NCBI GenBank assembly: GCA_044225205.1
Contig: JBGAIY010000064.1
Span: 1-23,941 of the forward strand
Reading direction: 5' to 3'
Length of the DNA stretch: 23,941 nt
DNA from: Myxococcaceae bacterium
Lineage (GTDB): Bacteria > Myxococcota > Myxococcia > Myxococcales > Myxococcaceae
Positions 3,103-18,703 of this stretch are shown piece by piece. Both the position numbers and the translations under genes were made by a program. The notes beneath the pieces are model-generated. The model was not told the origin of the DNA, ran no database searches, and saw only the letters and a program-made list of their open reading frames with translations. The stretch's first letter is position 1, and every line of letters begins with the position of its first letter.

Positions 3103-4464
3103 GTGAGTGACGACCTCGAAGACGCGCTGCAAGAACTCGAAGCTGGCGGAGAGTCGCCGGTGTACCTCGTCGTCGGCGAAGAGTTTCTCGTGCGCAAAGC
3201 GGCTGAAACGCTGCTCGCCAAGTTGGTGCCCGGTGGTTCGGCCGACCTGAACCTCGTCACGATGGACGGCGCGTCGCCCCGCGACATCGCGTCTGAATTG
3301 GCGACGCTGCCCATGTTCGGCGGGCGCAAGGTCGTCTTCGCGCGAGACCCCGAATTTCTCGCCCCGAAAAAGGGCCGGGTCGACGCGCTGGGCCGCGCCC
3401 GCGACGCGTGGAAAGCGAACCGCAAGAAAGAGGCGGCGCGGCGGGTGCTGGCGCTCGCGGCGAGAGCGGGGTGGGGAGCCGGCGACCTCGACCCCGGTCG
3501 CGAAGGCGCCCCGAAGCCCGACGACTGGGAGCGCGAGCTGGGCATTCAGCTCGCCGAGCTCGACGTCGCTTTCTTGAAAGAAATTTCGGCGTTTTGCGTG
3601 AGCGAAGGCATCACCGCGCCGTCGAGCGACGACACCGTCTTGAGCGAATGGCTCTCGAAGAAGCCCGCGAAAGGGCAGGTGCTGGTCATCGCCGCGACCG
3701 AATTCGAAGCGAAGAACGCGTTCATCAAGTTGGTCAAAGACGAGGCGCGGTTTCTCGAGTTCAAGGTCGCCTCGAAGCTCAAAGACCTCGACCTGACCCA
3801 GTTCGTGGCCGAGACGCTCGAACCGTACAAGAAGAAGCTCGGCGCCGGCGCGCTCGACGTGCTCAAAGAACGGGTGGGCGGCAACTTTCGGTTGCTCCAG
3901 TCTGAATTGACGAAGCTCGCGCTGCACGCCGACGGGGCGACCATCACCGTCAAAGACATTGAGCTTCTGGTCGGCCACGCCCGCGAAGACGAATACTTCG
4001 AGTTGTCAGACGCGATTCAAAAGCGAAACTACGAAGCGGCCATGAAGTACGTCGAAGACGCGCTGGCCCAGGGCGGGCACCCGCTCATGATGCTCGGGTC
4101 GGTCGCCGGCATCGTTCGCAATTTGCTCATGAGTTACGAGCGCATGATGCAGCTGTCGGGCGGTAAACCGCCCCGCAACTACAACGACTTTCAAGCCCGG
4201 CTGTGGCCCAAAATCGAAGCCGAGACCAAAGCCGCCAAGGCCAAGTTGCCGCACCCGTACGCCGCCTTCATGGGCATGCAGTCGGCGGTGGGCTACGGGC
4301 GTCAGGAGCTGCTCCGGGGGCTCGTCAGTTGTGCCGAAGCCGACCTGGCGCTCAAGCTCGGTGGCGGCGAACTCGTGCTTGAACGCCTCGTGTGGACCTT
4401 GTGTGGCAAAGCCCCCGCGTGGGACTCGGGCATGCACGTGATTCGACGCGAAAACGAGCGGTAA
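3103..4464 (+). CDS. holA: DNA polymerase III delta subunit (HolA), GTG start, with a ~100-aa insertion relative to the E. coli protein
   Basis: C-terminal region ELTKLALHADGATITVKDIELLVGHAREDEYFELSDAIQK...GGHPLMMLGSVAGIVRNLL matches the HolA clamp-loader delta fold. N-terminal VYLVVGEEFLV matches too. The gene lies next to metG-tatD, a conserved neighbourhood. Confidence 0.82.
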   Translation: MSDDLEDALQELEAGGESPVYLVVGEEFLVRKAAETLLAKLVPGGSADLNLVTMDGASPRDIASELATLPMFGGRKVVFARDPEFLAPKKGRVDALGRARDAWKANRKKEAARRVLALAARAGWGAGDLDPGREGAPKPDDWERELGIQLAELDVAFLKEISAFCVSEGITAPSSDDTVLSEWLSKKPAKGQVLVIAATEFEAKNAFIKLVKDEARFLEFKVASKLKDLDLTQFVAETLEPYKKKLGAGALDVLKERVGGNFRLLQSELTKLALHADGATITVKDIELLVGHAREDEYFELSDAIQKRNYEAAMKYVEDALAQGGHPLMMLGSVAGIVRNLLMSYERMMQLSGGKPPRNYNDFQARLWPKIEAETKAAKAKLPHPYAAFMGMQSAVGYGRQELLRGLVSCAEADLALKLGGGELVLERLVWTLCGKAPAWDSGMHVIRRENER

Positions 4465-4489
4465 CCCTTTTGTTTGGTGGCCTTGCAAG

Positions 4490-6562
4490 ATGACGACGAA
4501 GACGACGAAGAAAACGCTTTTGACCTGTGCCTTGCCGTACGCGAACGGCCCCATTCACTTGGGCCACATGGTCGAGCACATTCAGGCCGACGTGTACGTG
4601 CGGTTTCGCAAGTCGTGCGGTGACGACATCACCTTTGTTTGCGCCGACGACACCCACGGCTCGCCGATTGAGTTGGCCGCGCTCAAAGCGAACGTCGCTC
4701 CCGAGGCCTACGTCGCGAAAATCTCCGTCGACCACCAGAAAGACTTCGCCGACTTTCAAATTGGCTTCGACCATTACGGCTCGACCAATTCTGAAGAGAA
4801 CCGGCACTACGCCGAATTGATCTACGGCCGGGCGAAAGAAGCTGGGTCGATTGGCAAAAAAGAAGTCGAGCAGCCCTACGACGCGAAGATGGGGCGTTGG
4901 CTCTCAGACCGGTTCATTCGCGGCACCTGCCCCAACTGCAAGTCACCCGACCAGTACGGCGACGCGTGCGAAAAGTGCCTCAAGACGTATTCTCCGCGCG
5001 AGCTCATCGACCCGCGGTCGGCGTTGTCGGGAGAACCCCTGGAGTGGAAGAAGTCGTCGCATGCGTTCTTCTTGCTCTCGAAGCACGCCGACTTCTTGAA
5101 AGGCGTCATCGCCAACGCCGACTTCATGAACCCCGGGCCGGCGGCCCAGCTCGGGCAGTTTTTCGACAAAGGCCTCGCCGATTGGGACATCACCCGCGAC
5201 GGGCCGTACTTCGGCTTCAAAATACCGGGCGAAGACAACCAGTATTTCTACGTGTGGCTCGACGCGCCCATCGGCTACATCGCGTCGACCGAGCAGTGGG
5301 CCAAGAAGACGGGGCGGGCCAAGAGCGCGCTCGACTATTGGGCCGAAGACGCCGACGCCGACGTGATTCACGTCATCGGCAAAGACATTGTCTACTTTCA
5401 CTGTCTGTTCTGGCCGGCGGTGCTCAAGGTCGCGAAGCTCAAACAACCCAAGCACGTGCACATTCACGGTCACCTGACGGTGAACGGCGAGAAAATGTCG
5501 AAGTCGCGGGGCACGTTCATCAACGCGAGGCCGTACCTCGACGTGCTCGACCCGAACTACCTGCGGTTTTACTACGCGTCGCTCCTCGGCCCCGGCCCCG
5601 AAGACCTCGACTTCGACTTGACGACGTTTCGCGAGCGGGTCAACGCCGAGTTGGTCAACAACTTGGGCAATTTGGCGAACCGCACGTTGTCGCTGTTGGG
5701 CCGCCCCGAATTGGGCAAGCGCTTGGCGACCGCGCCGACCGAGCGGGGGGCCGCGTTGGTCAACGGCGCCCTGGCCCGCGTGCCCGAAATTCGCGAAGCG
5801 TTCTCGAAGTTCGACCACCGCACCGCGGTCAAAGCGATTCTCGAAATTGGCCAGAGCGCGAACCAGTTCTTGACCGAATTCGAGCCGTGGAAGGTGCTCA
5901 AGAAAGACGTCGAGGCCGCACGGGTGGCGCTGACCGAAGCGGCCGAAATCGTTCACCTGTTGACCGCGTTGCTCGACCCGATCGTGCCGGAGTTGGCGGC
6001 GAAATTGGCGACGCAGCTCAACGCGCCGAAGTTGACCTTTCGCCAGCTCGAAACCGCGAAGTACCCGCTGCTTGACCGGCAGCGACCCATCGGTGACGCG
6101 TCGCCGCTCATCAACCGCCTCGAGGCCGACCAGGTGGCGAAGCTGATTGTCGCACCCGCGACCCCGGCCGTCACCGCGGCGGCGCCCAGCACGCCCGCGG
6201 CGAAGAAGCCGGCCGAAGCACCGGTGGGGCCACCGCCCGAAATCGAGTACGGCGACTTCGCCAAGGTGTCGCTGCGTGCGGGCAAGGTGCTCGCCGCCGA
6301 GAAGGTGCCCAAAGCCGACAAGCTGTTGAAGCTCAGCATTGACTTGGGTGAAGGCAGCCCGCGCACCATTGTCTCGGGCATCGCCGAGGCGTACGCGCCC
6401 GAGGCCCTGGTCGGCAAAAACGTGGTGGTGGTGGCGAACTTGAAGCCGCGCGCGCTCAAAGGCATTGAGTCGCGCGGCATGATTTTGACCGCCGGCAGCG
6501 GGGGCAAAGACCTCGTGTTGCTCGACCCGGGCAACGTGCCGCCGGGCGCGGAGGTGAAGTGA
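4490..6562 (+). CDS. metG: Methionyl-tRNA synthetase with a C-terminal tRNA-binding (EMAP/Trbp111-like) domain
   Basis: Contains HLGH (PIHLGHMVEH), KMSKS (EKMSKSRG), the zinc knuckle CPNCKSPDQYGDACEKC, and a C-terminal FAKVSLRAGKVLAAEKVPKADKLLKLSIDLGEG tRNA-binding fold. Confidence 0.96.
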   Translation: MTTKTTKKTLLTCALPYANGPIHLGHMVEHIQADVYVRFRKSCGDDITFVCADDTHGSPIELAALKANVAPEAYVAKISVDHQKDFADFQIGFDHYGSTNSEENRHYAELIYGRAKEAGSIGKKEVEQPYDAKMGRWLSDRFIRGTCPNCKSPDQYGDACEKCLKTYSPRELIDPRSALSGEPLEWKKSSHAFFLLSKHADFLKGVIANADFMNPGPAAQLGQFFDKGLADWDITRDGPYFGFKIPGEDNQYFYVWLDAPIGYIASTEQWAKKTGRAKSALDYWAEDADADVIHVIGKDIVYFHCLFWPAVLKVAKLKQPKHVHIHGHLTVNGEKMSKSRGTFINARPYLDVLDPNYLRFYYASLLGPGPEDLDFDLTTFRERVNAELVNNLGNLANRTLSLLGRPELGKRLATAPTERGAALVNGALARVPEIREAFSKFDHRTAVKAILEIGQSANQFLTEFEPWKVLKKDVEAARVALTEAAEIVHLLTALLDPIVPELAAKLATQLNAPKLTFRQLETAKYPLLDRQRPIGDASPLINRLEADQVAKLIVAPATPAVTAAAPSTPAAKKPAEAPVGPPPEIEYGDFAKVSLRAGKVLAAEKVPKADKLLKLSIDLGEGSPRTIVSGIAEAYAPEALVGKNVVVVANLKPRALKGIESRGMILTAGSGGKDLVLLDPGNVPPGAEVK

Positions 6563-7527
6563 GCGACTGGCGCGCTCAGCGTGACACCGCGTTGCTCGCG
6601 CTCGAGAGCGAGAAACGCGAATCGGCTCGGGTCGAGGCCGCGCTCACCGTGTGCGACCTGGCGCAAGACGTGTCAGACGCCGAGGTGGGCGAATTCGCGC
6701 CGGCGGTGGTGCGGTTGTTGGCCGACCGAAACCCCGAAGTGAAGTGCGCGGGTCTCGCGCTGGCGGTCGAAGTGTTGCCTCCCGACGAATCGAAAGAATT
6801 GCTCATTCGGCACGTCGCCGACCCGATGCCGCGCGTTCGGGTCGAAGCGGTGGGGCGGCTGGCCGACCACGCCTACCCCGACACGCGTGGGGTTTTCGCT
6901 TCGGCGCTCGACGATTCGGTGCAGAGCGTTCGGTTCGAAGCCGCGCGCGGCATGGTCGCGCTCAAACACCCCGCGGGCCTCGAGGTGCTGGTCGCGGCGC
7001 TCGACGACGTCGACCTGCGCTTTCGGGCCGCGGCCGCGCTGGCCCAGCTCGGTGACCGGGCGGCGGTGCCGGCGCTCAAGCGCGTCTTCGAAAAGTGGCT
7101 GTTGCCGCCGTTCGACCGCACGCAGCTCGCCGGGGCGTTGGCTCAATTGGGCGAAGCCGCCGGCGTCGAGCACTTGTTCAAGCGGGCCGGCAAGAAGTGG
7201 TCGGTCGACCGCGCCATGGCCATCGAGCTGCTCGGAGAGGTGAAAGCCCCCAAGGCCCGCGAGCGACTCGTCGACATTCTAAATGACCCGAAAGACCCGT
7301 GTCGCGGCGCGGCGGCGCGGGGGCTCGGGCGGTTGGGTGACGCGTCGGTCGAAGCGGTGCTCGTCGCTTCGCTCCAAAGCCAGTTGCACGACGACGAGCG
7401 TCTCGACGTGGCCGAAGGCCTGTTGCGGCTCGGCACCGACAGCGCGCGCGCCCACGTGACGACCTTGCGCCTCGAGTCAGACGCGGCCCGGGCCGAACTC
7501 GCCGACATGTTGGCGCCGCTCCCATGA
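6559..7527 (+). CDS. HEAT / PBS-lyase-like repeat protein
   Basis: GTG start overlaps the metG TGA (GTGA), and the stop overlaps the tatD ATG (ATGA). Repeated xVRxxAAxALxxLGD units appear (RVRVEAVGRLADH, VRFEAARGMVAL, LRFRAAAALAQLGD, RGAAARGLGRLGD). Confidence 0.8.
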   Translation: MSDWRAQRDTALLALESEKRESARVEAALTVCDLAQDVSDAEVGEFAPAVVRLLADRNPEVKCAGLALAVEVLPPDESKELLIRHVADPMPRVRVEAVGRLADHAYPDTRGVFASALDDSVQSVRFEAARGMVALKHPAGLEVLVAALDDVDLRFRAAAALAQLGDRAAVPALKRVFEKWLLPPFDRTQLAGALAQLGEAAGVEHLFKRAGKKWSVDRAMAIELLGEVKAPKARERLVDILNDPKDPCRGAAARGLGRLGDASVEAVLVASLQSQLHDDERLDVAEGLLRLGTDSARAHVTTLRLESDAARAELADMLAPLP

Positions 7528-8306
7528 TTCTCATCGATTCGCACTGTCACCTCGAACCCAAAGACTACCCGCTCGCCGACGAGCCCATTGCCCGCGCGCG
7601 CGAGAACGGGGTCGTGCACGCGGTGGTCGTCGGGCAATTTCACCAGCCGGGAGACTTCGGGCACGCCCTCGCGGTGGCCCGCGCGCACCCCGACTTCTTG
7701 ACGCCCACCATGGGCATTCACCCGCACGACGCCGCGAAGGCCACCCCGGCCGACTGGGCGAAGCTCGAGACCTTGTGCGCGCTGCCCGAGGTCAAAGCGG
7801 TGGGCGAAGCGGGGCTCGACTTTTACTACGAACATTCTCCTCGCGATGTTCAGGCCGAGGCGTTTCGCCGGCAGTGTCAGTTGGCGAAAGCGCTCGGCAA
7901 GCCGCTGGTTGTGCACGTTCGCGACGCGCACCCCGAATGCATTGACGTGCTGCGCAGCGAAGGCGTGCACGACGGCATGATTCACTGCTTCACCGGTGAC
8001 ACCGATCACGCGCGCGCGTACCTCGACCTGGGCTTCTATTTGAGCATCTCGGGCGTCGTGACCTACAAGAAGACCGAGCCATTGCAGGCCGCGGTGCGGT
8101 TCGCTCCGCTCGAGCGGCTCATGGTCGAAACCGACAGCCCGTACCTCGCGCCCGTGCCGTTTCGCGGCAAGCGCAACCAACCCGCCTACGTGGTCGAAAC
8201 CGCGAAGAAGATCGCCGAACTCCACGGCCAAGGCGCTGAGCTCGTGGCGCTGACCTGCGCGCGCAACTCGAAGCGGCTGCTCGGCCTTTCGGTCGAGCTG
8301 CCGTAG
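7524..8306 (+). CDS. tatD: TatD-family metal-dependent hydrolase (DNase)
   Basis: MILIDSHCHL..., GLDFYYE, VVHVRDAH, IHCFTGD and ETDSPYLAP are the canonical TatD motifs. The gene follows metG, as in many bacteria. Confidence 0.9.
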   Translation: MILIDSHCHLEPKDYPLADEPIARARENGVVHAVVVGQFHQPGDFGHALAVARAHPDFLTPTMGIHPHDAAKATPADWAKLETLCALPEVKAVGEAGLDFYYEHSPRDVQAEAFRRQCQLAKALGKPLVVHVRDAHPECIDVLRSEGVHDGMIHCFTGDTDHARAYLDLGFYLSISGVVTYKKTEPLQAAVRFAPLERLMVETDSPYLAPVPFRGKRNQPAYVVETAKKIAELHGQGAELVALTCARNSKRLLGLSVELP

Positions 8307-8318
8307 CGACCGCCCGAC

Positions 8319-8681
8319 CTACCCCGGGCGCGACCCGACTTCGATGAGCACCTCGCCCGGTGCATGCAGGCAGAACATCGTGCCGCGGTTGTTGGTGCTG
8401 ACGGGGCCCACGGCGACCCCGGCGGCGGTCAACGCAGTGTGCTTGCCCACGACGTCGCCTGGCGTCGGCAGCAAAAAACCGACATGAAACCCCGACGGGT
8501 AGCGCTCGTCGGGCGGCCGTTGCTGCACCACCAAGGTGAAGGGCCCGGGGCCGCGCAAAATGGCCATGGCCGGAGATTGGCGATTGGTGCTGACCCACTC
8601 GAAGCCGAAGTGGTCGACGAAGAACGCCGCCGTCAGGGTGACGTGCGGTACCTGCAAGTCAACGTGGTTGAGAACGAACAT
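8319..8681 (-). CDS. VOC / glyoxalase-bleomycin-resistance family protein (~120 aa)
   Basis: The internal start MFVLNHVDLQVPHVTLTAAFFVDHFGFEW fits the VOC N-terminus, with a GAGGT Shine-Dalgarno 6 nt upstream. The longer 8849 start offered in the ORF track adds a non-homologous extension. Confidence 0.72.
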   Translation of the reverse strand: MFVLNHVDLQVPHVTLTAAFFVDHFGFEWVSTNRQSPAMAILRGPGPFTLVVQQRPPDERYPSGFHVGFLLPTPGDVVGKHTALTAAGVAVGPVSTNNRGTMFCLHAPGEVLIEVGSRPG

Positions 8682-8882
8682 GGTGAACCTCGCAATTCGG
8701 GCACACGGGCCCGACTTGCCGCGGGTACTCACTCGACCTTGCTCCGTCGAGGGTACAGGGTTCCCACCATGGGAGTGACTGGGGCTCACCAAAACCAGTC
8801 GGCCTTTTCCGGCGGGCGGGAGCTTACCCTGTTGCATCACTGCGTGCACTTGGCGAAGGTGGGCTGGGCCGTGGGGGCGTTC

Positions 8883-9434
8883 ATGCGAAGAGCGTTTTGT
8901 TCATGTGTTGGGGTGCTGGCCCTGGTCGGTTGCGGTCGCACCGGGCTTTCTGACGACGGGCGTGACGACCCGACGCCATTGCCCGTGACGACGCGTGCCG
9001 AGCCGCTGTTCGTCGCGAAGGGGGGCCCCTGCCCGACCAAGGGGGTTGAAGCCGACCTGAAGCCGACCGACTCTTCAGACCGGCTCGTGTTGATTGAAAC
9101 GACGAGCGTCTACGAATGCACCGACGTGAGCGGCGAGTACTTGGTGGGCCTCGAAGTGGGGACCCCCAAGCGAGCGTGGGTCGGCGACCACGGTTGCTAC
9201 TTCATCAGTGAAGCGTTCGGCAGAACGCACCCGCTGTCACAAGGCCCGAGTGAGCGCTGGTGGGGTGTGGCCAGGTTTCGTCAAACCGCAGCGTGGTTTG
9301 TGGCGCCCACTGGGGTGTGCACCACGCCGGTCGACGGGCTCGAGGGCGTCGGCACCGACTCGCGCTCGGTCGCTTGGGCGGTCTACGGCAGCGAAGCGGC
9401 GGCGCGTTCTGCGTTCGCGGCGCTCAAACCGTGA
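8883..9434 (+). CDS. Small lipoprotein, no recognised family
   Basis: MRRAFCSCVGVLALVGCGRTG... is a signal peptide with an LVGC lipobox. A GGGGG Shine-Dalgarno precedes it. Transcription is divergent from the VOC gene. Confidence 0.55.
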   Translation: MRRAFCSCVGVLALVGCGRTGLSDDGRDDPTPLPVTTRAEPLFVAKGGPCPTKGVEADLKPTDSSDRLVLIETTSVYECTDVSGEYLVGLEVGTPKRAWVGDHGCYFISEAFGRTHPLSQGPSERWWGVARFRQTAAWFVAPTGVCTTPVDGLEGVGTDSRSVAWAVYGSEAAARSAFAALKP

Positions 9435-9455
9435 GCGCCGGCCTCTGGCGGGCGC

Positions 9456-10703
9456 CTACCGAACCCGCAGATTGCGTGGTGGCGACGGCAACGCCGAGGC
9501 GGCGTACTCGTGCCCGCCCGCGTCGCAGCGAACACCAGCGGGGCGGCCGTTGCCGTCGTGGTCGGTCGAAAGGCAATCGGTGCCCGAGCCCCCGGAGTCA
9601 ATGGCGGGCGAACCCGCCGTCAGGTGAAACCCGTCGGCGCCGCCCAGCCCCGACGACGTGACCGCCTTGTCGGTACCTCCGCACGCCGCGCCCGAGCTGC
9701 CGTACCAGACGTTCGAACGAAACGCCGTGCCCTCGCAGTTGCCGCGCGGGCCCAGGTTGCCCACCCACGCGATGTTGCCGTAGGTGCAGTTGCCACCGGC
9801 CATCATCGGGTTCAAAAACGTGTTGTAGCGCAGCGCCCAGTCGGTGCAGGTCGAACCCTGGTAGTTCATGTTGAGCGTGAAATACGCCGAGCCGAGGTCA
9901 CCGAAGAAGTTGTTCTCGAGGGTGATGTTCTGCGGCTTGGTGCCGCGAAAGGTGCTGAAGAAAATGAGCGACGTGCTGGTCACGTTGTTGGTGAACGTGC
10001 TGTTGCGAATCGTCAGCCCGTTGACGTTGCCGTCGACCCGAATCACCTCGAAGTGGTTTGAATTGCCTCCCGTGTTGACGATGTTGTCGAACGTCACGCC
10101 GTCGACCAGCACGTCGGTCGCCGTCGAAGGGCCAGCGACGTCGGTGCTCGCGAAAATGGCCATGCCGTTCGCGCACGACGAACACGAGAAGTCGCGGAGC
10201 GCGCCGCCGAGCCAACGAATGTGAGACCACCCGTTGGCCGCCCAGGTGACACCGCTGTCGCCCGAGAAGGTGCAGTTGCGGCACGTGATGTGGTTGGTGC
10301 CGTCGGCCGACAAGTCCCACCCGGGGCCGGAGATGTTTTGCAGCTCGTACCAGGCGCCGTTGGTGGTGAGGGCGCCAATGGTCGTCGCCGTTTCGGCGAT
10401 CACCGTGCAGCCCGGCGAGGCCTTGGTGACAGAGATGTTCTGGGGGCCATAGGTGCCCGCTTTCATGCGTATCTGGTCGCCCGCGACGCAGGCCGAAAGG
10501 GCGCTTTGAAGGCTCGCGCAGGCCGCACCGTCGCTGTACGCCGACGCGGTGGCCTGGCGCGCACACGAGCCGCCATTCGTGTCGACCCAGAGGTTCGCCG
10601 TCTGGGCCCAAACGCTCGACGGCAGGCCCAGCACCACGAGCGCCGCGAACGGGCGCAGCCCACCCCGCATGCCCCGCCCACCAGGTGAGTTGATCGTCGT
10701 CAT
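9456..10703 (-). CDS. Secreted right-handed parallel beta-helix (pectate-lyase-fold) repeat protein
   Basis: MTTINSPGGRGMRGGLRPFAALVVLGLPSSVWAQT is a signal peptide, preceded by a GGAGAG Shine-Dalgarno 5 nt upstream. Recurrent N.T...N..... and NNxF turns are present, and the C-terminal DAGGHEY motif is typical of this superfamily. An alternative ATG lies at 10670. Confidence 0.8.
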   Translation of the reverse strand: MTTINSPGGRGMRGGLRPFAALVVLGLPSSVWAQTANLWVDTNGGSCARQATASAYSDGAACASLQSALSACVAGDQIRMKAGTYGPQNISVTKASPGCTVIAETATTIGALTTNGAWYELQNISGPGWDLSADGTNHITCRNCTFSGDSGVTWAANGWSHIRWLGGALRDFSCSSCANGMAIFASTDVAGPSTATDVLVDGVTFDNIVNTGGNSNHFEVIRVDGNVNGLTIRNSTFTNNVTSTSLIFFSTFRGTKPQNITLENNFFGDLGSAYFTLNMNYQGSTCTDWALRYNTFLNPMMAGGNCTYGNIAWVGNLGPRGNCEGTAFRSNVWYGSSGAACGGTDKAVTSSGLGGADGFHLTAGSPAIDSGGSGTDCLSTDHDGNGRPAGVRCDAGGHEYAASALPSPPRNLRVR

Positions 10704-10752
10704 CGTCTCTCTCCGTTCACAGTGTGGCTCGAAGCGCAGGTGAACTTTGAGC

Positions 10753-11457
10753 TTAAGGAGCGACCGCACTCGCTTCGTTCGAGTGCACGCTCTCGGCCCC
10801 AAGTGAATCGACCGCGCCGCAGACGTAGTAGTAGGTCGCCCCGGAACTGACCGTGGTGTCGGTGTACGTGAGCCCGGTGAGGTCTTGCGCCATCACCGTG
10901 TAGGGCCCACCTGGCTTGGTCCCTCGGTAGACCGTGTACTTTACGCCGGCGGTGGTGCTCGCGTCCCACTCCAACGTGAGGGAGCCGGGTGCGCCGGCGT
11001 CGACCGTCGGCAGGCCCGCGTCATGCGCTCCGCCGTCAGGTGCGGGTTGGCCGGCGTCATGGCTGCTGCCGGTGCCTGCGTCGGTCTCGGTCACACCGCC
11101 ACCATCAGCGCCATTGCCACCGCCCGCGCCGTTGCCGCCATCAGCGCCATTGCCACCGCCCGCGCCGTTGCCGCCATCAGCGCCATTGCCGCCATCAGCG
11201 CCATTGCCACCGCCCGCGCCGTTGCCGCCATCAGCGCCATTGCCGCCGCCCGCGCCGTTGCCACCGCCCGCGCCACCACCGGCCCCGCCGCCCAGGCCCA
11301 TGTTGCCGCCGCCGGCTCCGCCACCCGTGTGCATCTGGGCGCCCCCGTCTGGGTGTTCGTCGAAGCCACCGTCGGCGATGCCGCTGCAGCTGACCGCGAA
11401 GAATACGGGGAGGGTGCTGACGAGCAGTGCTCGAAAGAACGTGTGGCTGGGTCGCAT
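10753..11457 (-). CDS. Lipoprotein with a (GGNGAD/GGNGAG)n low-complexity linker and a C-terminal fibronectin type III domain
   Basis: MRPSHTFFRALLVSTLPVFFAVSCSG is a signal peptide with an AVSC lipobox. The C-terminal LTLEWDAS...YTVYRG...YYYVCGAVD is an FN3 signature. The middle of the protein is encoded by a DNA tandem repeat. Confidence 0.8.
   Translation of the reverse strand: MRPSHTFFRALLVSTLPVFFAVSCSGIADGGFDEHPDGGAQMHTGGGAGGGNMGLGGGAGGGAGGGNGAGGGNGADGGNGAGGGNGADGGNGADGGNGAGGGNGADGGNGAGGGNGADGGGVTETDAGTGSSHDAGQPAPDGGAHDAGLPTVDAGAPGSLTLEWDASTTAGVKYTVYRGTKPGGPYTVMAQDLTGLTYTDTTVSSGATYYYVCGAVDSLGAESVHSNEASAVAP
11104..11265 (-). repeat. In-frame tandem DNA repeat (VNTR) of a 36-nt unit, itself two related 18-mers, about 4.5 copies
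   Basis: The + strand unit atcagcgccattgccaccgcccgcgccgttgccgcc repeats perfectly at 11104 and 11140. An 18-nt half unit sits at 11176. A perfect copy follows at 11194 and a variant copy at 11230. It encodes GGNGADGGNGAG. Confidence 0.9.
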
Positions 11458-11586
11458 GGCGTGGGCTCGCTGGTTTCGACTTCGTCTTGCCTCGAGGACA
11501 CCTCGACCCGACGAGCTGCAAGTCGAATGACCAACCAGTTGATTTGTCGTGGCTTTTGGCCAGTCGCGAGGCGAGTTTGGGGCCGC

Positions 11587-13530
11587 CTACGCGGCGCTCT
11601 CGAGCTGGCGGGCGATGACGTCGAGGTTCAGGTCGACGTTCGGCATGTCGGCCAGCATGCTCTCGGGGTCGTACTGAAATTCTGCTTGAGGCACCGTGAG
11701 CAGCGCAGAAATGGCGGGCTCGCCTTTTTTGTCGGCGAATTGAGCGAAGACGACCCGCCCGCGCTCGAGTTGCAGGTGCCCCTCTTGGGGCCCGTTGCGT
11801 ACGGTGAGGCGGCCCGACTTGAGGCCGGCTCCGAGAATTTTGACGAGATCAACGGCGGCGAGTTCATCGAAGTTGCCGCGCACGGTTCTGCCCGGGCCGC
11901 CGTTTTCGACGCGGTCGACATACGCCCCGCGAATGGTGACCGCGGCGTCGTCGGGAGCGAGGGGCACGGGCAAGAAGCCGGTGACTCCGACTTGCACGAG
12001 GCGCTCGCGGCTGGTGGGGTCGGTGGGGTTGCCCAGCACCAAGACCGGCACCGAAGCGCTCTCGGGCCTCGCGCGAAGAAATTGGGTCATGGCGACGAGG
12101 TCGCTCACGCCGTAACCGAGCCCAGCGACAATGACGTCGGCTTCGTTGCCCAAGACGGCGTCGACAATGCCGTCGAGCTTGACGACGGTTTGCACCACCA
12201 AGCCGGCCCGGGTGAGCGCGTCGAGCAGGTCGGTGCGGGTGGCCTCGTCGGGGTCGGCCACGAAAATGTGTCGGCCGTCGTTTTCGACGCGTTGGCGCAG
12301 CAGGTCACCGCTCTGCAACGCCGCGAGGGTCGCGACGATGATGGGGTCGAACAAAACGTTGCCCTGTTCGACCAGGTACGCGAGCGCCTCGTTCTTCGGC
12401 AAGATTCGCCCGAAGGGGTTCGCTGGGTTTCGGGTGAGGTCTAAAAAAGCGTCGACCGCCGAAATGATGCGCGCCGGAGCGGGGATGTCTTCACCTTTCG
12501 CGCCGAGGGGCACCCCCGACCCGTCGTACGCTTCGTAGACGTGCGCGAGAATTGCGTTCACGGCGGGCGGCAGGTGCACGGTTTCGAACAGCTTGATCGG
12601 CGCCCGCGCATACCGCTTCGCTTCGGCGCGGGTGTCGGGCTGCATGGCGAGCAGGGGCAGGGTGAAGTGCTTGTCGGTACGCTTGCCCAAGTCGTGCAAA
12701 TACGCCGACAGCGACGTGTTCGACACTTCACGCGGAGGCAGGCCCATTCGTCGCGCAATCAACCCGGCCTGGCGCGCGACTTGCGCGGAGTGGCCGCGAA
12801 AGTCTTTGCGGCCCATTTCCATCATCGACACGAGAATGTTGAGCGTTTCGAAGTAGTCGTTTTCGGCGATGCTGCCGCGCACACCCCCGAGTGCGTCGCG
12901 CAGCTGCGTCGCGTTGATTCGGCTCGACGTTCGACCCGAATTGCTGCCGCGGTCATTGCCGGTGCCCGTGCCGGTGGCAATGGGGGCGAGCCTCGAGTCG
13001 GCTCCGTCGTACGCGCGCGCCAACGTGAGGGTGTCGCGCTGCAGCGCTTGCACGCCGGCGCCCTGTTCGAGCGCGGCGAAAGCCGTGTGGTCGCCGTAGT
13101 AGTGTTTTTTGATGCCGGCCTGAATGGCGCTCCGCACCCCGACGAAGGCGAACACTTCGTTCATTTCGGTGACGAGCGCGATTTCGCGGGTGAGCGCCTC
13201 GTTCTGCGGCTCGGCCATGACGATCGACAAAATCTTTCGCTCGGCGTCGAGGGCGATGGGCAAGAAATCTTGGGCTTCGGCCATTCGCACCGGCACTTTG
13301 TCGAGCACCGAAGGCGCAATGGTCGCTTTCGCGAGTTTTTCGGCTGACACGAAGCGGGTGTTGAACTGCTGGGCCAAGAAGCGCAGAAGCGCGTTCTCTT
13401 GCACGAGCCCCAGTTCGACGAGGCAGTCGCCCAGGCGGTGCCCGGTAATTTTTTGGTGCGCGAGCGCTTGCTCAATGGCTTCGGCCGACACCAGGCCGGC
13501 TTCGATCAGACGCTCACCCAAACGCTTCAT
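11587..13530 (-). CDS. Multidomain c-di-GMP signalling protein: tandem MshEN motifs, a degenerate HD-GYP domain, a receiver-like (pseudo-REC) domain and a C-terminal DUF4388 (PATAN-like) domain
   Basis: The N-terminus carries two 24-aa MshEN-type motifs, RLGERLIEAGLVSAEAIEQALAHQ and RLGDCLVELGLVQENALLRFLAQQ. The HD motif (LHDLGK) is present, but the HHE...GYP signature is altered to HVYEAYDGSGVP. A CheY-like segment lacks the phospho-acceptor Asp at the expected position (ADVIVAGLG). The C-terminus, DLVKILGAGLKSGRLTVRNGPQEGHLQLERGRVVF, resembles DUF4388. Confidence 0.85.
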   Translation of the reverse strand: MKRLGERLIEAGLVSAEAIEQALAHQKITGHRLGDCLVELGLVQENALLRFLAQQFNTRFVSAEKLAKATIAPSVLDKVPVRMAEAQDFLPIALDAERKILSIVMAEPQNEALTREIALVTEMNEVFAFVGVRSAIQAGIKKHYYGDHTAFAALEQGAGVQALQRDTLTLARAYDGADSRLAPIATGTGTGNDRGSNSGRTSSRINATQLRDALGGVRGSIAENDYFETLNILVSMMEMGRKDFRGHSAQVARQAGLIARRMGLPPREVSNTSLSAYLHDLGKRTDKHFTLPLLAMQPDTRAEAKRYARAPIKLFETVHLPPAVNAILAHVYEAYDGSGVPLGAKGEDIPAPARIISAVDAFLDLTRNPANPFGRILPKNEALAYLVEQGNVLFDPIIVATLAALQSGDLLRQRVENDGRHIFVADPDEATRTDLLDALTRAGLVVQTVVKLDGIVDAVLGNEADVIVAGLGYGVSDLVAMTQFLRARPESASVPVLVLGNPTDPTSRERLVQVGVTGFLPVPLAPDDAAVTIRGAYVDRVENGGPGRTVRGNFDELAAVDLVKILGAGLKSGRLTVRNGPQEGHLQLERGRVVFAQFADKKGEPAISALLTVPQAEFQYDPESMLADMPNVDLNLDVIARQLESAA

Positions 13531-13631
13531 CGTCGCCCGTCACCCTACCAATGATTTCAACAGATTCAGCATTGCTGCATCGGTCAGCCAACCCAGCAGC
13601 GGTCACCCAAGGTCGCTGGTTGAACGAAAAC

Positions 13632-13670
13632 GGCCCGTGAACGCGGCGGCGTTGCACCGCGTCACGGGCC
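13632..13670 (-). terminator. Rho-independent terminator for the OB-fold gene
   Basis: Inverted repeat ggcccgtga(a)cgcgg ... ccgcgtcacgggcc, 14 bp with one bulge. On the - strand it is followed by gttttcgtt. It sits between the OB-fold gene stop (13695) and the MshEN gene start (13530). Confidence 0.55.
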
Positions 13671-13694
13671 AAAAAAACAAGCAATACCCAATTG

Positions 13695-14495
13695 TTACGA
13701 CTGCGAGGGGGGCTCGCCCACGAGGGCGGTCAAGGGCTTGAACGACAAGCCCTCGGGCAGGCCGGGGTCGCGCTTGAGCTCGGGCTTTTCGCTCTTCGAA
13801 GCGGTGGTGGCATCATCGCCGCGCGGTTTGTGCTCGACGCGTGGGCCCCGCTCGCGCCGGTCGCGGCGCCGCCCCGTGCCGGGGGCCGGAGCGCCTTCGT
13901 GGGCCGCCGCGTGCGCGGGGTGTGCTTTGACGCCGCGTTCGTCGATGGCGGTCAGCAGCACGTCGAGCGCTTGCAGCACCTTGGGGTCGTCGAGCAGCCG
14001 CAGCACGCGTTGCCGAATGGCCTTGGGGGAGTGCGCGTCGGGCCCGTGTTCGGCTTTTACGCCGTTGGGCGAGCCCGCGGTGGCCACGGCGGCTTCGGCG
14101 GTCGGCGGGGGGGCGACGTAGTTGAATTCGTTGGGGTCAATGGGCTCGGGGTCGAGGCGCTCGAGCCGGTCGATGACCAGCTGGAGCTTGCCGTGAAAGA
14201 CTCCGATTTTGCCTTTGACCAGCAGGTAGTCTCCGGCGGCGAAGGCCGCCTCGGCGGGGTCGACGTTCTCGAAGACTCGGGCGTCGAGTTGGCCCGTCTT
14301 GTCGACCAACGACACCGAGAGGTAGGGCTTGCCCGAACGGCTGCTGTGCCGCTCTTTGGTGACCGCCTTGAAGACGGTGTGAATGGGGGCCCCATTCTTC
14401 ACGTCTTTGACGTACACCTTGCGAATTCGCTCTTCTTCTTCGGTCGTCGTTGTGGGGGCGGCCACGTTCTGTTCTGTCGGTTCTGTCTGGTTCAC
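13695..14495 (-). CDS. YhaM-like OB-fold nucleic-acid-binding protein lacking the HD nuclease domain, with a basic disordered tail
   Basis: The segment ...ERHSSRSGKPYLSVSLVDKTGQLDARVFENVD...DYLLVKGKIGVFHGKLQLVIDRLERL has the tRNA_anti/OB pattern of the YhaM N-terminus. The following helical part (IRQRVLRLLDDPKVLQALDVLL...AHPAHAAAHEGA) ends where the YhaM HD domain would begin. The first codon is GTG and there is no clear Shine-Dalgarno, so the start is uncertain. Confidence 0.6.
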   Translation of the reverse strand: MNQTEPTEQNVAAPTTTTEEEERIRKVYVKDVKNGAPIHTVFKAVTKERHSSRSGKPYLSVSLVDKTGQLDARVFENVDPAEAAFAAGDYLLVKGKIGVFHGKLQLVIDRLERLDPEPIDPNEFNYVAPPPTAEAAVATAGSPNGVKAEHGPDAHSPKAIRQRVLRLLDDPKVLQALDVLLTAIDERGVKAHPAHAAAHEGAPAPGTGRRRDRRERGPRVEHKPRGDDATTASKSEKPELKRDPGLPEGLSFKPLTALVGEPPSQS

Positions 14496-14564
14496 GGTCG
14501 TGCGACACTACAACCACTTCGCCTCTTCACGAAGCGCCACGAAACGAAACACCTCGAGTTCACC

Positions 14565-15200
14565 ATGACCTGCTTGCTTTTGATTTCGCTGCTTTTGTCG
14601 GCCGACGAGCCCCGCTGGGAGCTTTCAGCCGAAGACACCGGCGTCAAAGTGTATGGCCGCAAGCGCGCCGACAGCGAAATTCGCGAAATGAAGGCCATCG
14701 GCCTGATGGACGCAACCCCCCAAGAAATCTGGAAAGCCGTACGAGATCTCGAGCACTACACCACCACCATGCCGTACATGGAGGAGGGCAAGGTGCTCTC
14801 GCGCGACCCCGACGACAAGGTCATCTTGTTCTATTCGAAGCTCAACACGCCGCTCGTCGACCGCCGCGACTACATCATTCGCCTGCTCGACGAGAGCGAC
14901 TGGAAAGACGGCAAGGGGTTTCTCAAAGTGTCGTGGACGGTGGTCAACGACAAAGACGACCTCGTGCCGGTGAAAGCCGACGTGGTGCGCGTTCGGGTCA
15001 ACGACGGGTACTGGCTGCTCGAGCCCCGCGAAGACGGCAAAAAGACCTTCGTCACCTATTACATCTACACGGCACCCGGCGGGTCGATACCCAACTTCAT
15101 TGCGAACAAGGGCAACAGCATCGCGGTGCCGAAGGTGTTCGACGCCATTCGCAAGACCGTCGCGCGCGAGCGCGCCGCGGCCGCGCCCAAGAAGCCTTAA
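14565..15200 (+). CDS. START / Bet v1-like (SRPBCC) lipid-binding domain protein with an N-terminal signal peptide
   Basis: MTCLLLISLLLSADEPRWE starts a protein of ~200 aa with a START-like pattern (KVYGRK...EIREMKAIGLMDATPQEIWKAVRDLEHY...YYIYTAPGGSIPNFIANKG). It is transcribed divergently from the OB-fold gene. Confidence 0.72.
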   Translation: MTCLLLISLLLSADEPRWELSAEDTGVKVYGRKRADSEIREMKAIGLMDATPQEIWKAVRDLEHYTTTMPYMEEGKVLSRDPDDKVILFYSKLNTPLVDRRDYIIRLLDESDWKDGKGFLKVSWTVVNDKDDLVPVKADVVRVRVNDGYWLLEPREDGKKTFVTYYIYTAPGGSIPNFIANKGNSIAVPKVFDAIRKTVARERAAAAPKKP

Positions 15201-18630: not shown

Positions 18631-18703
18631 ATTGGAATAGCTCAATTGGTAGAGCATCAGACTGAAACTCTGACTGTCGAAGGTTCGAACCCTTCTTCCA
18701 CCC
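18631..18703 (+). tRNA. tRNA-Phe(GAA)-like gene, 73 nt, AT-rich (~47% GC), with a noncanonical acceptor stem (A1:C72 and U2:C71 mismatches); possibly a foreign or degenerate tRNA
   Basis: Manual fold: acceptor attggaa/ttccacc (5 of 7 pairs), U8, D-arm gctc-aattggta-gagc, anticodon arm tcaga-ctGAAac-tctga, variable loop ctgtc, T-arm gaagg-ttcgaac-ccttc, discriminator c. CCA is not encoded. Confidence 0.55.

Follow-up and report, generated by a model that had tools for sequence, protein, structure and literature searches.

MshEN proteins number 17-22 in the myxobacterium Myxococcus xanthus and PATAN proteins more than a dozen, and for one gene product of this species, ABF87190, the domain order 'MshEN - HD-GYP - REC - DUF4388' was listed in Supplementary Table 4 of Wang et al. 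2016 (PMC5013675). This product, MXAN_2807, carries both HD-GYP and MshEN domains (Kuzmich et al. 2022); its HD-GYP domain is without several conserved catalytic residues and was predicted to be inactive in a study that also made an in-frame deletion of codons 6-655 of 661 (Skotnicka et al. 2015, PMC4686200). Here we describe a protein of the same architecture, named g1, which is encoded on the minus strand of a 23,941-nucleotide stretch of DNA from a Myxococcaceae bacterium (contig JBGAIY010000064.1, hereafter the window). A previous reading of the window from its letters only (the sequence-only reading) had not recognised the domain order as a described architecture, which the 2016 listing shows it to be. 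Our literature search found no dedicated functional study of either MXAN_2807 or the g1 protein.

We consider it moderately probable that g1 is a cytoplasmic and most likely non-catalytic receptor or adaptor for cyclic di-GMP (c-di-GMP), that it acts through its PATAN domain as the counterpart of MXAN_2807 in an uncultured Archangium-like myxobacterium, and that two genes downstream, named g2 and g3, form a separate cassette, which would occupy a variable slot. In the proposed mechanism, c-di-GMP would bind the N-terminal MshEN domain through two canonical 24-residue motifs, as sequence and structural model suggest. The HD-GYP-like domain would not perform normal c-di-GMP hydrolysis and the pseudo-receiver would not be phosphorylated, both probably serving as fixed structural or transmission modules. 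The PATAN domain would then be the output, working by protein-protein contact; cyanobacterial PATAN regulators suggest, by analogy, the type IV pilus motor or the cell-polarity machinery as its possible partner.

Domain organization of g1

The features of g1 are as follows (coordinates, strand, description).

11587..13530, minus: g1, MshEN - degenerate HD-GYP - pseudo-receiver - PATAN, 647 aa; assigned from profile searches, a structural model and comparison with MXAN_2807
13063..13530, minus: MshEN domain, residues 1-156; NF053729 and PF05157 above their cutoffs, motifs read directly, fold of 5htl
13366-13524, minus: tandem 24-residue c-di-GMP motifs with a 5-residue spacer, residues 3-55
12856..13062, minus: disordered linker, residues 157-225; predicted local distance difference test (pLDDT) values below 50, least conserved segment
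12283..12855, minus: HD-GYP-type domain with a degenerate active site, residues 226-416
11896..12282, minus: pseudo-receiver, residues 417-545; CheY-like fold
11590..11895, minus: PATAN domain (DUF4388 / PatA_N, PF14332), residues 546-647

An AlphaFold2 model of g1 built on 50 relatives (mean pLDDT 76.9) contains four folded domains, at residues 1-156, 226-416, 421-542 and 550-647, together with a disordered linker at 157-225. Conservation values below refer to these 50 relatives unless stated otherwise. The MshEN, HD-GYP and DUF4388 assignments of the sequence-only reading, for which a profile search had been proposed as the check, were all three confirmed by such searches.

Sequence comparison indicates that g1 is the counterpart of MXAN_2807. 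The N-terminus of MXAN_2807, as printed in the supplement of PMC5013675, is identical to g1 at 58 of 72 residues. Supplementary Table 4 of that paper prints the locus tag MXAN_2809 for ABF87190, and Table 3 and the printed alignment say MXAN_2807; we therefore take MXAN_2809 as a misprint. An RNA sequencing remark on MXAN_2809 (PMC11980068) was not used as expression evidence for the g1 counterpart, MXAN_2809 being another gene.

The MshEN domain

The 647-aa reading frame at 11587-13530 opens with two tandem 24-residue motifs, as had been proposed from the letters, and both profile and consensus comparisons agree with this. NCBIfam model NF053729 ('c-di-GMP_motif') covers residues 3-55 (66.7 bits, cutoff 38; E 1.1e-18), and Pfam PF05157 (MshEN) covers residues 66-149 (38.8 bits, cutoff 23.1). 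By direct reading, motif I extends from R3 to Q26 (RLGERLIEAGLVSAEAIEQALAHQ) and motif II from R32 to Q55 (RLGDCLVELGLVQENALLRFLAQQ). Both fit the consensus of Wang et al. 2016, RLGxx(L/V/I)(L/V/I)xxG(L/V/I)(L/V/I)xxxxLxxxLxxQ, with I19 replacing L, and the spacer K27-H31 has 5 residues, the canonical spacer being of about 5. The residues R3, G5, L8, G12, L23, Q26, R32, G34, L37 and L52 are invariant or nearly so. MshEN is also the best conserved domain of g1, with a mean identity of 81% to the window protein, compared with 50% for the linker 157-225.

Superposition with Foldseek of the modelled domain on the c-di-GMP-bound N-terminal domain of Vibrio cholerae MshE (5htl) gave a template modelling (TM) score of 0.87 and a root-mean-square deviation of 2.1 Å over 144 columns. 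No ATPase family matched g1 in the Pfam and NCBIfam profile searches, and the PilB and NfrB models cover residues 3-155 only; the earlier observation that MshEN here stands apart from an ATPase thus holds. On the basis of its motifs and predicted fold, the MshEN domain of g1 is likely to bind c-di-GMP.

The last residue of motif II is Gln in g1 (Q55, 13366-13368) and Glu in 44 of the 50 relatives and in the printed MXAN_2807 sequence. Single Q-to-E changes in the GSPII-B domain of PilF lowered affinity 77- to 158-fold, with dissociation constants still of 0.46-0.95 uM (PMC11731258). Because of this residue difference and the losses seen in PilF, g1 may, by analogy, bind c-di-GMP more tightly than most of its relatives, and affinity may vary from one family member to another.

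The HD-GYP-type domain

Pfam HD_5 (PF13487) covers residues 233-396 of g1 (E 3.6e-19), and the closest solved relative of this domain by sequence is the HD-GYP enzyme V-cGAP3 (5z7c), which is specific for cyclic GMP-AMP (cGAMP). Ligand positions were mapped by alignment to PmGH (4mcw), for which the numbering of the paper equals the chain index minus 6.

PmGH E185, g1 D243: kept as an acidic residue; position 243 acidic in 49/50 relatives
PmGH H189, g1 H247: kept; invariant
PmGH H221/D222, g1 H279/D280: kept; H279 invariant, D280 in 48/50 relatives
PmGH H250, g1 R306: lost; R invariant
PmGH H276, g1 H330: matched only across a 1-residue insertion; Q in 40/50 relatives
PmGH H277, g1 Y332: lost
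PmGH E278, g1 E333: kept; invariant
PmGH GYP, g1 G339-V340-P341: Tyr lost
PmGH D305, g1 D360: kept in 49/50 relatives

The classical H...HD...D tetrad is therefore present in g1, and the histidines specific to HD-GYP proteins and the tyrosine of the GYP motif are gone. An altered HD-GYP signature had been claimed from the letters; the GVP reading and the loss of the HHE histidine pair stand, and the 'YEA-like' reading of the HHE site is corrected to H-V-Y-E. At residue 340 the 50 close relatives carry V, L, I, T or M; in distant members F, L or V predominates. K283, D336, G337, G339 and P341 are invariant, and the substituting residues R306 and Y332 likewise show little or no variation. Since three of the eight metal ligands of PmGH and the GYP tyrosine are missing, normal c-di-GMP hydrolysis by g1 would not be expected.

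The pseudo-receiver and the PATAN domain

The receiver profile covers residues 422-528 of g1 below threshold (18.4 bits against a Pfam cutoff of 30.2). At the level of the model, residues 421-542 (pLDDT 85-93) have a receiver fold close to CheY4 (4hnr, TM 0.85) and also to PhoB and KdpE in the Foldseek search. A weak alignment to the Escherichia coli CheY profile (hhalign probability 13.5%, residues 479-526) places CheY T87 at G500 and K109 at V522, and CheY D57 falls on G470 by ungapped extension of this 13.5%-probability alignment. The invariance of G470, shared by G500, supports position 470 as that of the phospho-acceptor. The CheY-like fold and the glycine at this position agree with the sequence-only reading, which had described a CheY-like segment that appeared to lack the acceptor Asp.

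The C-terminal domain is DUF4388, as in the earlier reading: Pfam PF14332 (DUF4388/PatA_N) covers residues 551-629 with 48 bits (cutoff 25) and an E-value of 1.6e-12. DUF4388 is equated with PATAN by Han et al. (bioRxiv 10.1101/2021.06.11.447907), in line with the PATAN-like label given from the letters. They report co-occurrence of PATAN with GspE_N/MshEN as well as binding of cyanobacterial PATAN-REC regulators, the only PATAN proteins for which this is known, to the pilus motor proteins PilB1 and PilC.

Family size and residue evolution

The best relatives of g1, at least 120 proteins, are full length, share 62-86% identity with it and have the same Pfam architecture; the named members among the best 120 are assigned to Archangium, Myxococcaceae, Archangiaceae or Myxococcota. 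At least 457 proteins match a family member (P0105, a 661-aa Myxococcaceae protein used as query) at E <= 1e-100; they were again the uncultured relatives, with no sequence under an M. xanthus name. A search of 1.84 billion representatives at 50% identity gave 223 clusters with E <= 1e-30, many of them by single-stretch full-length matches down to about 27% identity.

Residues were surveyed across the family in an alignment of 52 members drawn from the E <= 1e-30 clusters. The HHE histidine pair is absent throughout the alignment, including 51 family members down to about 25% identity, and the commonest reading of the site is x-Y-E. The GYP site most commonly reads G[FVLI]P, and the HD motif is present in most of the 52 members. 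Because the histidine pair is missing across 51 members to such low identity, the degeneracy of the g1 family is, on this alignment, an old fixed design and not recent decay.

The receiver and MshEN residues have their own distributions. In the receiver region at g1 residues 466-524 (about 11959-12135), most distant members (P0234-P0364) have Glu at the acceptor position, with Thr/Ser and Lys-Pro kept. Gly at 470 and 500 together with the loss of the Lys occurs only in the subclade of the window. Perfect tandem MshEN motifs, conversely, are confined to this subclade, a distribution opposite to that of the kept receiver residues. The relative in locus L007 (44% identity) shows an intermediate state.

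Collectively, these results make g1 an ordinary representative of a myxobacterial family that is already catalogued and functionally uncharacterised. Its discovery value is small, as the architecture was published in 2016 and the M. xanthus counterpart was deleted without visible phenotype. What the family offers is a large, conserved set of proteins in which a high-quality c-di-GMP-binding module is joined to three signalling domains that are degenerate or little understood. The residue map of g1 and the family pattern (an HD pocket without HHE; receiver Glu in most distant members and Gly in the clade of the window) are starting points for biochemistry.

Gene neighbourhood of g1

The genes and segments around g1 are as follows.

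13695..14495, minus: YhaM-like OB-fold gene (PF01336), 266 aa, upstream of g1
10753..11457, minus: g2, probable lipoprotein with an Fn3-like C-terminal domain
9456..10703, minus: g3, secreted protein with a right-handed beta-helix and a C-terminal choice-of-anchor Q domain
8307..11586: lineage-specific segment between tatD and g1, with a VOC-family gene, a small lipoprotein-like open reading frame (ORF), g3 and g2
8319-8849, minus: glyoxalase/VOC-family ORF inside this segment
about 8883-9434, plus: small ORF inside this segment, without match to any family, whose product has a lipoprotein-like signal (MRRAFCSCVGVLALVGCG...)
7524..8306, plus: tatD, convergent to g1
4490-8306: tatD-HEAT-metG block

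A tRNA-Phe (GAA) gene at 18631-18703 on the plus strand is unrelated to g1.

Synteny was compared in eleven related loci, ten of which extend past the g1 counterpart; a scan of genome collections supplied close uncultured relatives. In none of these ten loci does g2 or g3 lie downstream of the g1 counterpart, relatives of 86%, 83% and 78% identity included. The genes found downstream of the g1 counterpart are listed here by locus.

L002, L003, L004, L007: convergent tatD-HEAT-metG, 40-130 nt past the end of the match (47 nt in L007)
L006: tatD-HEAT-metG block, about 1.1 kb past the end of the match
L001, L013 (86% identity): LysR regulator, convergent, followed by a SnoaL-like gene
L014 (83% identity): luciferase-like monooxygenase
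L015 (78% identity): rarA-like ATPase

Thus tatD is the nearest identified downstream gene in five related loci. Because the tatD-HEAT-metG block adjoins the g1 counterpart in relatives and sits at 4490-8306 in the window, the 3.3 kb at 8307-11586 is by this comparison a lineage-specific insertion. The slot between tatD and the g1 stop also varies in close relatives, where it holds LysR, SnoaL-like and DoxX genes in some and, in others, the gene for a luciferase-like monooxygenase or that for a rarA-like ATPase. The G+C content of the window is uniform (61-70%). No direct or inverted repeats flanking the 8307-11586 segment were found, the search returning just an internal tandem repeat of g2 and short GC-rich chance matches, and no mobile-element hallmarks or genes were seen within its 3.3 kb.

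The conserved neighbour of g1 lies on the other side. The OB-fold gene is directly upstream of the g1 counterpart on the same strand in 10 of the 11 related loci, with gaps of 50-90 nt where genes were called, and the adjacency is missing in the most distant locus, L007. The best matches of the OB-fold protein are to the N-terminal OB fold of YhaM, an exoribonuclease with OB and HD domains (9h3f, E 1.2e-4; NF010007, E 8.5e-8), and its C-terminal half is of low complexity and rich in Pro, Ala and charged residues. The comparison indicates that the upstream OB-fold gene, and not g2 or g3, is the conserved neighbour of g1; a functional partnership between the two is a lead only.

The downstream genes g2 and g3

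The sequence-only reading had reported two genes for secreted proteins 3' of g1 on the same strand, with no obvious terminator between them, and this arrangement is confirmed. The intergenic gaps are 129 nt (g1-g2) and 49 nt (g2-g3). A consensus scan of both gaps, weak for high-GC myxobacteria, gave no terminator-like site, and one for sigma-70-like promoters, uninformative for myxobacteria, gave none either. The RNA fold of the 129-nt gap is unremarkable (z = -1.36), and an Rfam scan of 8200-14600 for riboswitches or other RNA elements in the gaps returned only two sub-threshold chance matches.

The g2 protein begins with a probable lipoprotein signal ending VFFAVSC, followed by a linker of GGNGA(G/D) repeats and a C-terminal Fn3-like domain. 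This domain resembles the Fn3-like structure 3mpc (E 6e-13), and Pfam gave no match on the g2 protein; signal and fold agree with the FN3 lipoprotein proposed from the letters. The linker is encoded by an 18-bp tandem repeat of 9.3 copies at 11108-11275, which also scores at periods 36 and 54. In the g2-like proteins of loci L008 and L011, a (PA)n linker takes the place of GGNGA(G/D), so linker composition varies between relatives.

The g3 protein has 415 aa from an ATG start, carries a signal peptide and ends in a choice-of-anchor Q domain (NCBIfam search). It is confidently predicted to form a right-handed beta-helix (AlphaFold2, pLDDT 90), in agreement with the beta-helix assignment of the earlier reading, and its neighbours in fold space are polysaccharide lyases. 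A sequence search of g3 against the Protein Data Bank gave no match. Its nearest solved folds in Foldseek are Pel9A, PL6 lyases, RbmB and VexL, a resemblance at the level of fold class only (TM 0.3-0.48), and the modelled fold would be of polysaccharide-lyase or glycosidase type.

Of 85 relatives of g3, the genomic context was read for three. Two lie in clusters with glycosyltransferases, an acyltransferase and asparagine synthase, one of which also has a UDP-glucose dehydrogenase; in both, a gene combining a lipobox, a (PA)n linker and an Fn3 domain is located 12-85 nt upstream of the g3 relative. The third has different surroundings and no g2-like gene. No MshEN gene was found near the g3 relatives in the three contexts. 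In L011 the g2-like gene follows a divergent gene and no gene precedes it on its own strand; the pair must therefore have its own promoter there. The L009 context of a g3 relative contains, within a few kb, a second weak Beta_helix protein (4328-5962) and a stand-alone PilZ gene (12722-13033).

As judged from these contexts, g2 and g3 are a self-contained pair that moves between contexts and not part of the g1 system. The best reading of the pair, from the predicted structures, is a surface-tethered Fn3 protein with a secreted enzyme that would cleave or modify polysaccharide.

Alternative explanations

A c-di-GMP sensor co-expressed with, or controlling, the g2/g3 surface module as one functional operon was the proposal of the sequence-only reading. 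The shared strand and the gaps of 129 and 49 nt speak for it, as do the lack of terminator-like or sigma-70-like sites in the gaps (in scans that are weak for myxobacteria) and a fold of the 129-nt gap that is not unusual (z = -1.36), so that read-through is possible. Furthermore, c-di-GMP commonly controls matrix and polysaccharide functions. Coupling of g1 to g2 and g3 nevertheless did not survive the neighbourhood check: the two genes follow the g1 counterpart in 0 of 10 loci, the closest relatives included, and a pair like g2-g3 was found on its own in two of the three other contexts read, in polysaccharide-synthesis clusters with no nearby MshEN gene and, in L011, with what must be its own promoter. 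We regard the operon as highly improbable. Read-through from g1 into g2/g3 in this organism is possible and would then be owed to the chance position of the insertion rather than to a conserved circuit. The synteny result averts a false link between the g1 receptor and a surface-polysaccharide cassette. A split unit is very unlikely too, in which g1 and the upstream YhaM-like OB-fold protein would together form an OB-plus-HD machine acting on nucleic acid under c-di-GMP control. The OB-fold gene is adjacent on the same strand in 10 of 11 loci and its product is most similar to the N-terminal OB fold of YhaM (9h3f, NF010007), but the YhaM matches are weak and limited to the OB fold, the HD domain of g1 is of HD-GYP and not of YhaM type, and the adjacency is gone in L007.

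The main rival to a non-catalytic receptor is a residual or alternative enzymatic role of the HD pocket, in which H247, H279, D280, D360 and D/E243 would hydrolyse pGpG, 3'3'-cGAMP or another substrate and MshEN would be an allosteric switch. H247, H279 and K283 are invariant, D280 and D360 are kept in 48 and 49 of the 50 relatives and residue 243 is acidic in 49; E333, D336, G337, G339 and P341 are also invariant, and the near-invariance of the substituted R306 and Y332 suggests a pocket kept by conservation rather than decay. By sequence, the nearest solved relative (5z7c) is, moreover, a cGAMP-specific enzyme. Against this, the family as a whole is without the GYP tyrosine and without three of the eight metal ligands of PmGH, the altered-HHE proteins HnoD and ECA3548 were reported inactive (bioRxiv 10.1101/2021.11.05.467447), and MXAN2807 was predicted inactive (PMC4686200), so we consider an enzyme unlikely. 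A decidedly doubtful further proposal sees in the g1 family a nucleotide sensor with two sites: c-di-GMP would be bound by MshEN, the HD pocket (H247, H279, D280, R306, Y332, E333, D360) would bind or slowly turn over a second nucleotide such as pGpG or cGAMP, and the combined state would set PATAN binding at the pilus or polarity machinery, perhaps with the OB-fold protein as a partner.

The non-catalytic receptor that we prefer has points against it as well. Strict conservation of the H...HD...D tetrad, the acidic residue 243 and K283 means that some hydrolytic activity may persist. Growth, gliding and pilus-dependent motility were normal in 21 of 24 mutants, the MXAN_2807 deletion included (PMC4686200). 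In the follow-up of 2016, development was normal in 20 of 24 mutants and MXAN2807 does not appear among the genes given as defective, so that the deletion would have no developmental phenotype either. Any role of g1 at the pilus motor may, by analogy, be conditional or redundant, and the lack of phenotype of the deletion as a whole argues for redundancy or a conditional role. Orthology of g1 and MXAN_2807, in turn, rests on the 72-residue printed fragment and the shared architecture.

Comparison with known systems

MXAN_2807 has the same four-domain order as g1, and its HD-GYP domain is likewise without several conserved residues; it differs in length (661 aa versus 647 aa) and in the end of motif II, which is E in MXAN_2807 and Q55 in g1. 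The likeness to the MshEN (GSPII) domains of the MshE/PilF type is one of tandem 24-residue motifs, 5-residue spacer and predicted fold (TM 0.87 to 5htl and about 0.8 to PilF GSPII-B). Unlike these ATPases of type II secretion and type IV pili, g1 is without an ATPase, and its MshEN domain is joined to signalling-type domains.

Shewanella HnoD and Pectobacterium ECA3548 (PilZN-PilZ-HD-GYP) share the altered HHE with g1 and act, or are thought to act, by binding and not by hydrolysis. In ECA3548, as in g1, a dedicated c-di-GMP-binding module is joined to a dead HD-GYP domain (bioRxiv 10.1101/2021.11.05.467447). In contrast to both, g1 uses MshEN and not PilZ, has an intact HD motif and continues into the pseudo-receiver and PATAN. 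The cyanobacterial PATAN-REC regulators PixG, PixE, LsiR and PatA also combine PATAN with a receiver, and their PATAN contacts PilB1 and PilC. In g1, however, the order is REC then PATAN, the receiver is predicted to be non-phosphorylatable, and the likely input is c-di-GMP and not a histidine kinase.

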